Positions 13,570 through 51,392 of a DNA stretch of 64,000 bases are shown here, piece after piece. The stretch's first letter is position 1; every line of letters begins with the position of its first letter. The translations under genes and the position numbers were made by a program. This stretch comes from Eledone cirrhosa (Eukaryota), in assembly GCA_964016885.1 (NCBI GenBank), contig OZ024763.1, positions 4,092,001 through 4,156,000 on the forward strand, written 5' to 3'. The notes below the pieces were generated by a model, which did no database searches, was not told where the DNA came from, and worked only from the letters and a program-made list of their open reading frames with translations.

Positions 13570-15484
13570 ACACACTAACACACTAACACATACATACACA
13601 TACTGGAAAAGACACATACACACTAACACATACATACACATACTGGAAAAGACACATACACACTAACACATACATACACATACTGGAAAAGACACAGACA
13701 CACTAACACCTACATACACATACTGGAAAAGACACAGACACACTAACACATACATACACATACTGGAAAAGACACAGACACACTAACACATACATACACA
13801 TACTGGAAAAGACACAGACACACTAACACATACATACACATACTGGAAAAGACACAGACACACTAACAGATATATACACATACTGGAAAAGACACAGACA
13901 CACTAACACATACATACACATACTGGAAAAGACACAGACACACTAACACATACATACACATACTGGAAAAGACACAGACACACTAACACCTACATACACA
14001 TACTGGAAAAGACACAGACACACTAACACCTACATACACATACTGGAAAAGACACATACACACTAACACATACATACACATACTGGAAAAGACACAGACA
14101 CACTAACACATACATACACATACTGGAAAAGACACAGACACACTAACACATACATACACATACTGGAAAAGACACAGACACACTAACACATACATACACA
14201 TACTGGAAAAGACACATACACACTAATACATACATACACATACTGGAAAAGACACAGACACACTAACAGATATATACACATACTGGAAAAGACACAGACA
14301 TACATACACATACTGGAAAAGACACAGACACACTAACACATACATACACATACTGGAAAAGACACAGACACACTAACACATACATACACATACTGGAAAA
14401 GACACAGACACACTAACACATACATACACATACTGGAAAAGACACAGACACACTAACACATACATACACATACTGGAAAAGACACAGACACACTAACACA
14501 TACATACACATACTGGAAAAGACACAGACACACTAACACATACATACACATACTGGAAAAGACACAGACACACTAACACATACATACACATACTGGAAAA
14601 GACACAGACACACTAACACATACATACACATACTGGAAAAGACACAGACACACTAACACATACATACACATACTGGAAAAGACACAGGCACACTAACACA
14701 TACATACACATACTGGAAAAGACACAGACACACTAACACATACATACACATACTGGAAAAGACACATACACACTAACACATACATACACATACTGGAAAA
14801 GACACAGACACACTAACACATACATACACATACTGGAAAAGACACAGACACACTAACAGATACATACACATACTGGAAAAGACACAGACACACTAACACA
14901 TACATACACATACTGGAAAAGACACAGGCACACTAACACATACATACACATACTGGAAAAGACACAGACACACTAACACATACATACACATACTGGAAAA
15001 GACACAGGCACACTAACACATACATACACATACTGGAAAAGACACAGACACACTAACACATACATACACATACTGGAAAAGACACAGACACACTAACACA
15101 TACATACACATACTGGAAAAGACACAGACACACTAACACATACATACACATACTGGAAAAGACACATACACACTAACACATACATACACATACTGGAAAA
15201 GACACAGACACACTAACACATACATACACATACTGGAAAAGACACAGACACACTAACAGATATATACACATACTGGAAAAGACATATACACACTAACACA
15301 TACATACACATACTGGAAAAGACACATACACACTAACACATACATACACATACTGGAAAAGACACATACACACTAACACATACATACACATACTGGAAAA
15401 GACACAGACACACTAACACATACATACACATACTGGAAAAGACACAGACACACTAACACATACATACACATACTGGAAAAGACA
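13570..15484. repeat. 40-bp minisatellite, about 47 copies
   Basis: Unit gacacagacacactaacacatacatacacatactggaaaa repeated head to tail. Confidence 0.97.
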
Positions 15485-17719: not shown

Positions 17720-17881
17720 CCACTACAGCTAGATCTTATCGCTTGGATCTAACTGTCGAAATGGCCAGAGCTCAGCCGGCAGGGTCGTAACTCTTTTCCT
17801 ATTACCCACTCAATTACCCTAAGTATTGAGTACTTTGGTGCGCTATGGTCCACCTGGTTCCTTACCACACCCTCTTTGGTA
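17720..17881 (+). mobile_element. Penelope-like tail module with the 3' half of a hammerhead-like motif
   Basis: acagctagatc...gatctaactgt c gaaa tggc..gccg followed by cctattacccact...aagtattgagtactttggtgcg, shared with 26826, 47882, 48098 and 51210. Confidence 0.6.
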
Positions 17882-26822: not shown

Positions 26823-26825
26823 TAG

Positions 26826-26933
26826 CGCACCAGAGTACTCAATACTTAAGGTAGTAGGGTGGGTAATAGGAAAATGGCAGAGCTCAAGCCATTTCGATGG
26901 CTATTTCTGGACTGAAATAGCCGTCGAAACGGG
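26826..26933 (-). mobile_element. Penelope-like tail module folded back at hammerhead stem II
   Basis: ccatttcgatggctatttc-tggact-gaaatagccgtcgaaacgg hairpin. Homologous to 51210-51392. Confidence 0.6.
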
Positions 26934-47417: not shown

Positions 47418-47850
47418 TGATATTAAATAAATGGAAACTATATTTATAAAACCATATTTATTTCGTTATATATATTTCAGGGATATCATATTAACAATAT
47501 GTTATGCCATCTTCAGACAAAATACAATATAAACAGTCTTATAAATAAATAGATACGACATACCTTTCAATCACCTTGCATTTGATACGACATACCTTTC
47601 AATCAAATGCAAGGTGATTGAAAGGTATGTCGTATCTATTTATTTATAAGACTGTTTATATTGTATTTTGTCTGAAGATGGCATAACATATTGTTAATAT
47701 GATATCCCTGAAATATATATAACGAAATAAATATGGTTTTATAAATATAGTTTCCATTTATTTAATATCATAAATATACTCCAAATACTTGTTGAGTGCT
47801 TTTATATCAGTTATAAATATTTACTCGTTGTTAACCCAACAATTTAAATA
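47418..47850 (+). mobile_element. Palindromic Penelope-like pLTR module (arms 47418-47586 and 47602-47770, tail to about 47850)
   Basis: Perfect arms. Hammerhead ttttgt [ctgaaga]...[gaaa] tatata [ta] acgaaa at 47666-47727. The tail is the reverse complement of 28005-28045. Confidence 0.82.
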
Positions 47851-47881
47851 TAACTTTCCATATATATATATATATATATAT

Positions 47882-48017
47882 ATAGGAACGAGTAAGACCC
47901 CGACGGCTTGAGCTCAGCCGTCGGGGTCTTACTCGTTCCTATTACCCACTCTACTACCCTAAGTATTGAGTACTTTGGTGCGTTATGGTCCATCTGGTTC
48001 CTTACCACATTTCCTTC

Positions 48018-48064
<47 letters not shown>

Positions 48065-48240
48065 ACTAGAAATTGATATATATATATATATATATATATA
48101 GGAACGAGTAAGACCCCGACGGCTTGAGCTCAGCCGTCGGGGTCTTACTCGTTCCTATTACCCACTCTACTACCCTAAGTATTGAGTACTTTGGTGCGTT
48201 ATGGTCCATCTGGTTCCTTACCACATTTCCTTCATTATAT
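47882..48240 (+). mobile_element. Two identical tandem Penelope-like tail modules, each folded back at hammerhead stem III
   Basis: taggaacgagtaagaccccgacggc-ttgagctca-gccgtcggggtcttactcgttccta plus a shared tail, at about 47883 and 48099, separated by (AT)n. Confidence 0.75.
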
Positions 48241-48610
48241 ATATATATATATATATATATATCAACTAGAAATTGATATATATATATATATATATATATC
48301 AACTAGAAATTAATTGACATATATATACATATATATATATAATGGCCTGACCCCATGCAACAGGCAGGAAGCGATATTTTCTCTAACCATGAGACTTTAT
48401 ACTCTTATGGTACAGAAATAGTTGTCTGAAGATCTAATTCTTTCCATTGGAAATTCTCTGAATTTCCAATCTTTTGATTAGTGAAACCGTTGGTAACGGC
48501 AATAGAACAGCTGAATATTTTAATCGTTTTTTAATTTATTTAAAAGATTGTTTGATGATCACTTATTCCGCTCATTTTTATATATATATATATATATATA
48601 TAAAATAAAC

Positions 48611-48656
<46 letters not shown>

Positions 48657-48689
48657 CAATCAATTTCTAGTTGATATAAATGCTCGGAT

Positions 48690-49556
48690 CTATTCATTGG
48701 AATCTTTGAGCATATTCTACAGTGGATATGGCGCATGTCTCTCAGACATGACACCCTTATATTTTAATGAAAGGTCTTTTAGCTTCCAGACCTTTCTTTT
48801 ACACACCTTCCTGTATGTCTCATTCCATCTCTTGCTTACTGAGGTATCACTAACGACTAACCTATGCTGTGGGGTACATTCTTCCTCAGGGTATGCCTTG
48901 GTATTTGACACCTTCTGTCTAACTAGTAAGAAGTCAATCTAGCTTATGTGCTCGCTTGATTTGTAGGTTTTTAGGTGGTTGGCAGGTGTCTGGAAGTTAG
49001 TGTTGCAAATAGTCAGTGTACTTGCATCACAAAATTCAAGATCCCTCACTCCTTTTTCATTTCATGAGCTGTAACCGTGCCCAACATGTACCCCAGTGTA
49101 ACCATCCTGGAGCTGTCCAACATGACCATTGAAGTCTCCTGCTAGCATAACGATGTCTCTGTCTTCTGTCATTGAGGCTGTTTGTAAAAGTTGCTCGTAA
49201 GAACAGTCTTTCTCTTCTTTACCTAGGCCTGCCTGGAGAGCATAGGCAGAGATGATTGTCAGTAGTCTCTTGCCTACAACTAATCTAAGCTTAATTATTC
49301 TATTACAAACTCTAACTACCTCTATTGTCTTATTGATCCACCTCTCAGCCAGTAATATGCCTACCCCACCTAACCCATCATCATTACCCACCCAGAAAAG
49401 CTTATAACTATGATGTTTGCCTGCGATTAGTCTTGCAGAGGCACCTCTCTATCTCACCTCTTGCACACAGCACACATCCACATGCCTTCTCTCCAGCATC
49501 TCCGCTATCTCACCAGATCTACCTGTTAGAGTGTCAACATTAAATGTGTCAACTCT
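48690..49556 (-). mobile_element. RTE LINE 5' fragment (APE endonuclease)
   Basis: GVGILLAERW, IISAYA, LAGDFNGHVG and QHRLVV, with a TFNVDTLTGRSGEIAEML start. Contains stops and frameshifts. Confidence 0.88.
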
Positions 49557-49861
49557 GCGATGCAACGTCTTATTCTTTTTCCTGTTGTTAGAAATGCTAA
49601 GTCAGGTGACCATGTTTTGCTCATACAGAACTATTTGAAAAAGGAGTAAGGTTCTATACAAAACAGAGATTATAGAAAAAAAAGTGGAATTGGAAATAGC
49701 ACAAAAAGTATATTTAAAGGATCCATTTTTCTTTTTTCTTCTTTGATTCGTCAAAGTAACATTATTGAAAAAATGAGAGGAACAATTTTTTGTTTTGAAA
49801 CTAACAAACAAACAAACTAAAACACACACACACACTCACATATATATATATATACATATAT

Positions 49862-50223
49862 ATATTTTGAGTTTATGTTGGTTGTATACCAACACCTCAG
49901 TATGCAGGCTGGAGCACTCGACGAAGTGCGCAGGTTGGTTTGGTTACTCCGGAGTTGTGTAAAATAAAGTTAAATAAAAGTCAAATGATTAAAATTTAGC
50001 TTCGTTTATTACTGCTATATATATTTCAGTGACAGCCATCTTTGGCTGTAACCTCTTCAGGCAGTTTGAATTAGTATGGTATAGACAAGTACATATGTCT
50101 ATACCATACTAATTCAAACTGCCTGAAGAGGTCACAGCCAAAGATGGCTGTCACTGAAATATATATAGCAGTAATAAACGAAGCTAAATTTTAATCATTT
50201 GACTTTTATTTAACTTTATTTTA
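49862..50223 (-). mobile_element. Palindromic Penelope-like pLTR module (arms 49960-50087 and 50096-50223, tail on the left)
   Basis: 128-bp arms with an 8-nt loop, flanked by (AT)n. Confidence 0.82.
50118..50172 (+). ncRNA. Minimal type I hammerhead ribozyme motif
   Basis: actgc [ctgaaga] g gtcacagcca-aaga-tggctgtcac t [gaaa] tatata [ta] gcagt. Mirror copy at 50011-50065 (-). Confidence 0.8.
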
Positions 50224-50293
50224 TATATATATATATATACGCCGATGAATTTGTTTTGCAAGGTTTTTGATATGAAATCGTGTGTTGAAACAA

Positions 50294-50430
50294 ATATTGT
50301 TATATTTAGGGAGGGTTATATTGTTATAATATTGCCAGAAATATATAGTAAAGCAAACTCACTGTGTATGTTTTACTATATATTTCTGGCAATATTATAA
50401 CAAGATGACCCTCCCCAAATATAACAATAT
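50294..50430. repeat. Inverted repeat with arms of about 60 bp
   Basis: atattgttatattt...gccagaaatatatagtaaa / tttactatatatttctggc...aaatataacaatat. Confidence 0.8.
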
Positions 50431-50451
50431 ATATATATATATATATATATA

Positions 50452-50620
50452 TCATTCCACTGCAAAGTGGTCATGTAGGTGCCTCGGCAAAAAAAGCACC
50501 CAGCACTCACTGTAAATGAGGTTGGTGTTAGGAAGGGTATCCAGCTGTAGAAATCAAGCCAAAATCAGTTACCGTCCCACCCTTGCAAGCAGGGAAAAGC
50601 GGACGTAAAAATGAAATGAA
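50452..50620 (+). mobile_element. 3' half of a family C SINE
   Basis: Matches 57880-58050. Confidence 0.85.
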
Positions 50621-50893
50621 TATCAAAAGTATATATAGGATAAGAAGGCATTTCAGCTATATTAAGGACGGGATATCTTCCCTAGTATCAATGCCATAAT
50701 GCAATGGACAGATATAGATATGTAGTCGTGACAACATGACCAACACTGGTCAGCTGGAAAAACCCACTTTAAATGATAATGCTGATGATGATGATGATAT
50801 GTATATATTTATATATATATATAGCAAACTTATACTAGTGAGTCTGTGTTAAGGTATGTCAATATCTTAACATCAAATATTATATTTTATTTT

Positions 50894-51087
50894 AGGGCGG
50901 TGGATTGGCCAGTATCAGTAGAGAGGGTCGGACGTCATGCTTTGACGCATAGAGTTACGGCCCTTTCCATTCTGGGTTCAAATCCCGCCGAGGTCAACTT
51001 TGCCTTTCATCCTTACGGGGTCGATAAAATAAAGTACCAGTAATGTACTGGGGTAATTGCTGGCCTTGTGCCAAAAGTAGAAACAAT
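50894..51087 (+). mobile_element. Family A SINE with a TSD of about 10 bp, inserted into a hammerhead-bearing pLTR module (50850-51190)
   Basis: tatattttat at 50881 and 51088, immediately followed by ctgatga aag...ctt aaaa (GAAA mutated). Confidence 0.85.
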
Positions 51088-51209
51088 TATATTTTATCTG
51101 ATGAAAGCACACTAAAATTTTGTGTCCTTAAAATATGTCTAATAAAATAAATATGATATTATAAAGATATTTTCCATTTATTAATATTGTTAATATTATA
51201 TATATATAT

Positions 51210-51388
51210 AACGAAGGAAATGTGGTAAGGAACCAGGTGGACCATAACGCACCAAAGTACTCAATACTTAGGGTAGTAGAGTGGGTAATAGGACCCCGAC
51301 GGCTGAGCTCAAGCCGTTTCGACGGCTAATTCTGGACTGAATTAGCCGTCGATACGGCTTGAGCTCAGCCGTCGGGGTCCTACTCGTT

Positions 51389-51392
<4 letters not shown>
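51210..51392 (-). mobile_element. Penelope-like tail module folded back at hammerhead stem II
   Basis: Hairpin 51289-51382 with loop tggact. The minus strand has gaaa cggc..gccg tc ggggtc (GUC site). Confidence 0.7.

Follow-up and report, generated by a model that had tools for sequence, protein, structure and literature searches.

Five copies of one short tail sequence recur within a 64,000-nucleotide (nt) stretch of the Eledone cirrhosa genome (contig OZ024763.1, positions 4,092,001 to 4,156,000; hereafter the window), at window positions 17720, 26826, 47882, 48098, and 51210; blastn located all five, as listed in the first-pass annotation of this DNA. Perfect palindromes were found with the loop TGAGCTC at 47909-47915 and 48125-48131 and with the loop TGGACT at 26908-26913 and 51333-51338. 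What sets the axes of these palindromes? The annotation had answered that a cDNA snaps back at the stem II and stem III hairpins of a hammerhead ribozyme and primes its own second strand. Counts across the genome point to another origin: quite probably, two target-primed cDNAs were made off the element RNA and end-joined head to head. Judged by its sequence motifs, the element is a Penelope-like element (PLE) equipped with an endonuclease (EN+) and with Hydra-type motifs, a known element type of which the window palindromes represent the short end.

The family is young and exceeds 20,000 copies. Two 35- to 36-nt tail motifs matched the 3.0-Gb genome exactly at 15,324 and 5,591 places, with none for the reversed controls. 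One tail copy led to reverse transcriptase (RT) sequence, and a protein search then retrieved many open frames of ∼784 codons, often arranged as 3.53-kb tandems. The long copy L086 holds an intact open reading frame (ORF) of 717 amino acids with an RT followed by a GIY-YIG-like C-terminal end, the EN motif being read by eye. The Pfam scan was weak (no match for the whole protein; RVT_1 on part of it, E 0.03), and the best named homologue, at 39% identity, carries PF01541, which we take to be GIY-YIG. The Penelope layout, i.e., partial tandems forming pseudo-long terminal repeats (pLTRs), an inverted 5′ copy, and an optional tail, was evident in 20 long stretches (L073-L092). As in the Hydra clade of PLEs, in the available parts of its description (Craig et al. 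2021, PMC8557442), a single ORF encodes the RT and then the GIY-YIG-like EN; its translation reads SDKTGN (the DKT motif), CNCPDRSIC (the CxCX5C linker), and CNLC..E..N..CKH (CxxC/CxH around E and N). The clade also shares the inverted 5′ copy, the tail, and the (TA)n targets, TA runs standing beside nearly all copies inspected. The family differs from that clade in reading LRWRTFF at the position of the RWK motif (a conservative K to R change), in its unit of 3.53 kb instead of generally <3 kb, in its 79-nt tail instead of the 30-40 bp stated there for Naiads and PLEs generally, and in its noncanonical hammerhead; here, many ORFs are intact and copies are 99.5% alike. The Naiad clade was ruled out, since this element has DKT and a C-terminal EN (Naiads have an N-terminal EN, DKA, and no canonical hammerhead ribozyme).

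To place the arm ends, element positions were counted from C17 (position 0), the base 5′ of the predicted hammerhead cut, with the natural copies L033 and L086 as references. The sample comprised tail matches taken in order along one contig (92 + 91 = 183, out of >20,000 copies), less three entries (a tandem duplicate and two nested mis-parses). Of the 180 parsed copies, 127 consist of two short arms, with about five very short inverted arms missed and counted as single. The outer end of the tailed arm lies at +98, and that of the tail-less arm lies at +19 in 126 of the 127 two-armed copies. The 287 inner ends of the 180 copies comprised 192 at −44 to −33 and 13 at 0/+1, with 4 in loop III and 2 at −45 to −84; 192 of the 286 ends within −84 to +30 thus fall in 12 nt (p 3e-116 versus uniform), and a minor peak of 21 ends stands at −34. 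Matching the wall at −40, depth rises ∼20-fold across L033 1701-1739 in contigs X1 and X2, which come from independent runs. The ends at −44 to −33 lie inside loop II, so that the 5′ strand of stem II is missing from short copies. TGGACT, taken by the annotation for the stem II loop, is instead the final 6 nt of an arm ending at −40; the real loop II has ∼33 nt, and the window copies with TGGACT, lacking the 5′ strand, can form no stem II hairpin.

Specific junctions were nevertheless overrepresented. The stem III junction occurred in 161 exact copies genome-wide and the TGGACT junction in 924, the reversed-pattern controls giving 0 for both. Two-armed copies number an estimated 14,800, a lower-bound denominator, of which the two junctions represent ∼1% and ∼6%; over a rough independence estimate they are enriched ∼20-30x and 3-4x, respectively. 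Part of what the annotation expected was borne out: the distribution of axes is far from uniform and stem III complementarity favors a junction, but hairpin loops are not what sets the axes. Joins in the 127 two-armed copies carried inserts in 54 cases, no overlap in 31, and 1-6 nt of microhomology in 42. The junction inserts of L247, L253, L245, and L228 are short iterated copies of arm sequence, which we take to resemble polymerase-theta joining.

A copy made by fold-back must lie within the strand that was copied, and the tail can come from no cDNA but the tailed one. In the 127 two-armed copies, the tail-less arm was the longer in 53, the shorter in 54, and tied in 20; neither arm can thus be a copy of the other, and fold-back fails as a general mechanism. 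When the arms differed by ≥10 nt, the tail-less arm was longer in 26 copies versus shorter in 6, and among 19 longer copies (mixed sets) the figures were 11 and 7, with a median difference of 298 nt. Orientation told the same story. The TGGACT junctions of the young subfamily stood in the form impossible for fold-back in 127 cases versus 140 in the possible form, a few of them having tails on both sides, and the 30 stem III loci read out of 161 were split 12:17 between mirror forms, with one lacking a tail (14 + 10 classed by script and 5 by eye: L277, L278, L284; L299, L301). These 1:1 mirror counts largely refute fold-back as the main route, although it may persist as a minor one in less than ∼1% of copies. 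The stem III junction fits annealing of two cDNAs at its self-complementary 6-mer. Arm haplotypes were concordant in 33 of 34 scorable copies (44 read; L113 was discordant), compared with a mean of 11 and a maximum of 21 in shuffles, which suggests one RNA or one source copy for both arms.

The anatomy of the window copies can be read in these terms. In copy 47882, the tail-less arm (47883..47908, minus strand) runs from its outer end at +19, next to TA, to −6. The tailed arm (47903..48020, plus strand) starts at −19 and continues through loop III, the GUC (C17 at 47922), and the stem I 3′ strand into the 79-nt tail (47942-48020, plus strand), which runs up to (TA)n. The junction at 47883 hence joins −6 to −19 via the 6 nt of the stem III strand common to both arms. 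The second copy (48099..48236, plus strand) is identical and shares unique flank past the TA run; it belongs to a 216-bp tandem duplication and is not a separate insertion, which reduces the four examples of the annotation to three events. The duplication, at 47865-48300, is bounded by TA runs and also includes a third, partial copy of the flank; it may be microsatellite mediated or an assembly effect. In copy 51210, the tailed arm (51210..51338, minus strand) ends at −40 in loop II, likely the RNA 5′ end, and has a 10-nt deletion not present in the opposite, tail-less arm (51339..51392, plus strand), which spans −34 to +19 with C17 at 51373. Copy 26826 belongs to another subfamily; its tailed arm (26823..26913, minus strand) also ends at −40, has a shortened tail, and has lost the GUC via an internal deletion. 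Its opposite-arm remnant (26914..26932, plus strand) starts at −34 and is cut off by a minisatellite of 29-bp units at 26933-27400. The junctions at 51335 and 26910 both join a tailed arm ending at −40 to another arm starting at −34. Copy 17720 (17725..17878, plus strand), of a diverged subfamily known in long form from L100 and L191, consists of an 11-nt inverted remnant, a 10-nt spacer, a sense arm that begins at about the same place in loop II as the others, and the tail. The CUGANGA half is missing from all five copies, as had been noted. The reported retention of GAAA through GUC in four copies stood only in part: GUC is lost in 26826 and replaced by GCA in 17720, 47882 and 48098 start after GAAA, and one arm of 51210 has GATA.

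Long copies carry a predicted type I hammerhead with a variant core. Its motifs run in the order stem I, core, stem II (with a bulged base and the ∼33-nt loop), GAAA, a stem III of 6 bp closed by a palindromic loop, and GUC. The minimum free energy fold of L086:2728-2862 is a three-way junction with the G10.1-C11.1 pair, GAAA, and an NUH site. The cores of 133 long-copy regions read TTGAGAA in 61, CTGAGAA in 48, TTGATAA in 4, and GTGAGAA in 3, with four rarer and 13 unparsed. The canonical CTGANGA, which typifies the Hydra clade and which the annotation had expected upstream of stem II in untruncated copies, occurred in none of the 133; a hammerhead-like motif does lie there, but its core is U3-A8 or C3-A8. 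The 3-8 pair is Watson-Crick U3-A8 in the young subfamily and others and C3-A8 in 48 of the 133 regions, so a large subfamily has spread despite a mismatched pair. At L033:1674 and in other long copies, C and U have similar depth at position 3, and A8 is apparently fixed. Across 13 variants, 92.9% of cells were paired versus 26-52% in slid controls, with compensatory changes on both sides at 2 pairs, all within one subfamily. The predicted ribozyme resembles those of the Schistosoma mansoni Cercyon PLEs, as given in the accessible text of Cervera and de la Pena (2014, PMC4209133), in its type I fold within the pLTR, covariant U3-A8 core, long stem II with an additional base close to its 5′ end, G10.1-C11.1 pair, and palindromic loop III. 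It differs in its full 6-bp helix III, in the ∼33-nt loop II that likely holds the transcription start, and in the large C3-A8 subfamily. The portions of that article considered here contain no evidence of cleavage in vivo.

The wall at −40 looks like a capped transcription start that lies, in the upstream pLTR, within loop II; a lesser start may lie near −44. The base adjoining ends at −40, either insert or flank, was G in 14 of 23 cases versus 21 of 120 elsewhere (p 5e-5), and an extra, untemplated G was present on both arms of L155 and L263. Copying of a cap leaves a G, as is known from L1 work. In arms of the young subfamily across the whole genome, the cDNA continued past −40 with C in 898 cases, G in 684, T in 108, and the genomic A in 3,059; a hand count of the first 100 C matches yielded 8 head-to-head pairs with the extra base on both arms. 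The site itself reads TTAGTC, which we take to be initiator (Inr)-like. Precedents exist in the parts of earlier reports available for Penelope of D. virilis, with an internal promoter containing Inr and downstream promoter element (DPE) motifs (PMC2377424), and for PLE transcription beginning in the pLTR of the upstream partner (PMC6765202).

The second wall coincides with the predicted cleavage position. Where a tail-less arm ended at +1, which happened in 4 copies, its partner invariably did so too, and 3 further tailed arms could end at +1 alone (p 3e-6). We tallied by hand the first 100 of 638 very short copies, a set that replaced a 532-place pattern set consisting about half of an unrelated repeat. 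Both arms ended at +1 in 36 (23 with an insert and 13 blunt), one arm ended at +1 with the other shorter in 24, and the remainder ended further upstream (19) or were shorter (21). The class with both arms at +1 scales to about 230 copies, ∼1%. Unlike those at the −40 wall, inserts at +1 begin with A (15), T (7), or C (1; n = 23). These ends are likely run-off products on hammerhead-cut RNA and would, on this DNA footprint, be a record of cutting in vivo. The ribozyme would then seem to exert its influence by way of its cut site, in this small class, and not by way of its hairpins. The mismatched C3-A8 core appears underrepresented among them (8 of 36 versus a larger share of copies), which is suggestive only, age being a confounder. 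The unrelated repeat, which is abundant, contains a hairpin whose stem is likewise GACCCC/GGGGTC and whose loop has 7 nt; read by eye, it accounted for 27 of the first 50 of the 532 places.

A scheme for insertion can be drawn from these ends. At a cut (TA)n target, both strand ends would prime separate cDNAs on element RNA, one at +19 and the other at +98, both TA and both serving as internal RT start sites. Each cDNA would run off the 5′ end of the RNA, i.e., the capped start at −40 (or the minor one at ∼−44) or +1, the latter being the 5′ end that would result when the hammerhead in tandem or read-through RNA cleaves itself. The cDNA 3′ ends would be joined after trimming, via 0-6 nt of microhomology or short inserts, with self-complementary stem III merely providing 6 nt at which the cDNAs can anneal to each other. 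The two would likely derive from the same RNA or the same source copy, and long copies may come from tandem transcripts or template jumps. In L023:945-1470, L149, L184, and L212, arms reach the wall and then enter unrelated internal element sequence, likely by template jumps. We lean, on balance, toward a fuller account, in which PLEs insert by paired target-primed reverse transcription (TPRT): a dimer would prime from each target strand, using two sites of a single RNA, and the cDNAs would be joined head to head. The thousands of run-off copies would then map the capped start in loop II, so that new transcripts carry half a ribozyme, and at least 200 copies would record hammerhead cleavage in the germ line.

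Self-priming as such has been put forward for Penelope palindromes (PMC3846280, in its available text). The model of the annotation, in which one cDNA snaps back at ribozyme stem II or III and the hairpins set the axes, could draw on that proposal, on the enrichment of the stem III junction, on the fold-back-allowed orientation of all three independent window events, and on the shared arm haplotype. We consider it very improbable, given that mirror forms are as common, that the tail-less arm is so often the longer, that the stem II 5′ strand is missing from short copies, and that the cap-like base is present on tail-less arms too; copying would also need to halt at +19 in nearly every two-armed copy.

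A hairpin-free U-turn at the RNA 5′ end, where the RT jumps onto its own cDNA and copies back, with later central deletion producing the asymmetry, would suit the many short copies that are near-symmetric around −40 and the jumps from the wall into internal sequence described above. A cDNA copy cannot hold its own last bases, however, and tail-less arms reach −40 plus an extra base where tailed arms stop at +15/+19 (L238, L249). Together with the extra base on both arms of L155 and L263 and with opposite arms that may be kilobases longer, this makes the U-turn unlikely. It is similarly doubtful that two cDNAs were made but the walls reflect RT stalling at RNA structure, namely, the top of stem II and the base of stem III, with the ribozyme uncut. 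Stalling would account for the side peak at −34, at which the 3′ strand of stem II begins, and for +1 lying directly 3′ of stem III, and it accords with insertion of the Poseidon element PAc independently of ribozyme cleavage, with no reads ending at the ribozyme site in the accessible parts of that report (PMC11167929). Yet stalls should be independent between arms, whereas +1 ends are paired; the modal ends at −40/−39 lie in unpaired loop II; and the added base differs between walls (G/C at −40 and A/T at +1).

Several points weigh against the paired synthesis of two cDNAs from capped or self-cleaved RNA. The start, the cap, and the cleavage are all read from DNA footprints. The 684 arms with G after −40 include unsubtracted mirror images of C matches or the first base of the partner, and single-armed copies of the form (TA)4-X-AGTCC have G in 19, C in 22, and A in 2, C being genomic in one subfamily. 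The RT might also add the extra C of its own accord, as a terminal transferase would. Ends scatter over −44 to −33, with a side peak at −34 for which the scheme does not account, and the haplotype agreement could equally come from conversion between arms. Arm lengths of long copies are uncorrelated (rho −0.22, p 0.37, n 19), giving no support for a shared RNA end. As to the ribozyme, folding was no better than in shuffles (z 0.27 for L086, −0.72, and −0.53, not significant), Rfam scans of the window and the full pLTR returned no hammerhead match, and the 8 of 36 copies with both arms at +1 noted above belong to a haplotype usually bearing C3-A8.

The proposed scheme is reminiscent of L1 twin priming, where each target strand serves as a primer and microhomology joins the two cDNAs. 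L1 primes at the 3′ end and far inside, resulting in an inversion without duplication, whereas here the primings are close and result in a head-to-head duplication. The nearest biochemical parallel is PAc of Anolis carolinensis, for which both target strands were cut and extended in vitro and two internal RT starts bound the tail (Frangieh et al. 2024, PMC11167929); the AT-rich target, the tandems, and uncleaved RNA as the main template are also alike. The accessible parts of that report give no account of inverted copies and no RNA ends at the ribozyme site, where ∼1% of copies end here, on both arms. The Penelope hypothesis of Arkhipova et al. (2013, PMC3846280), as far as its text is available, describes the same inverted pLTR, palindromic junction, optional tail, and Inr-like pLTR motifs; it invokes self-priming on an antisense template and came with a call for further experiments, whereas our data favor two cDNAs on sense RNA. 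Formation of the inverted structure and hammerhead cutting in vivo are named as open in PMC8557442 (section 15), PMC3846280, PMC4209133, and PMC11167929. A preprint, in its available part, presents retrozymes as PLE derivatives and has no bearing on the junctions (bioRxiv 10.64898/2026.07.22.740005); passages of PMC13000458 were of no relevance. Within the literature covered, which excludes subscription papers and supplements, we found no paper that describes, for PLEs, synthesis by two cDNAs, footprints of a cap, or ends at the cleavage site. The type of element, its palindromes, and the existence of a hammerhead had been recorded before; the novelty lies in the mechanistic read-out.

The window contains other palindromes. 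A second family at 4737-4971 has the same head-to-head geometry, and its copies in fetched flanks (L035, L150, L167, L211, L269) begin at one base, a second run-off wall. The 130-bp arms of a palindrome at 49958-50225 (axis near 50088) hold a minimal-hammerhead-like motif that is intact and canonical (CUGAAGA), has TATATA as its loop, and lies ∼35 nt downstream of the axis. The head-to-head element at 47410-47775 (axis near 47606) has an intact, canonical hammerhead-like CUGAAGA...GAAA motif downstream of the axis, a short templated-looking duplication at the junction, and 21 blast matches in fetched flanks. A loop-free palindrome with 701-bp arms occupies 39886-41287.

A young family of >20,000 copies offers footprints that can be counted to tell self-priming apart from synthesis by two cDNAs, and the two-cDNA model predicts exact RNA ends, capped at −40 and uncapped at +1. 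If true, paired TPRT would explain the inverted repeats found family-wide and would give the first in vivo footprint of PLE ribozyme activity.

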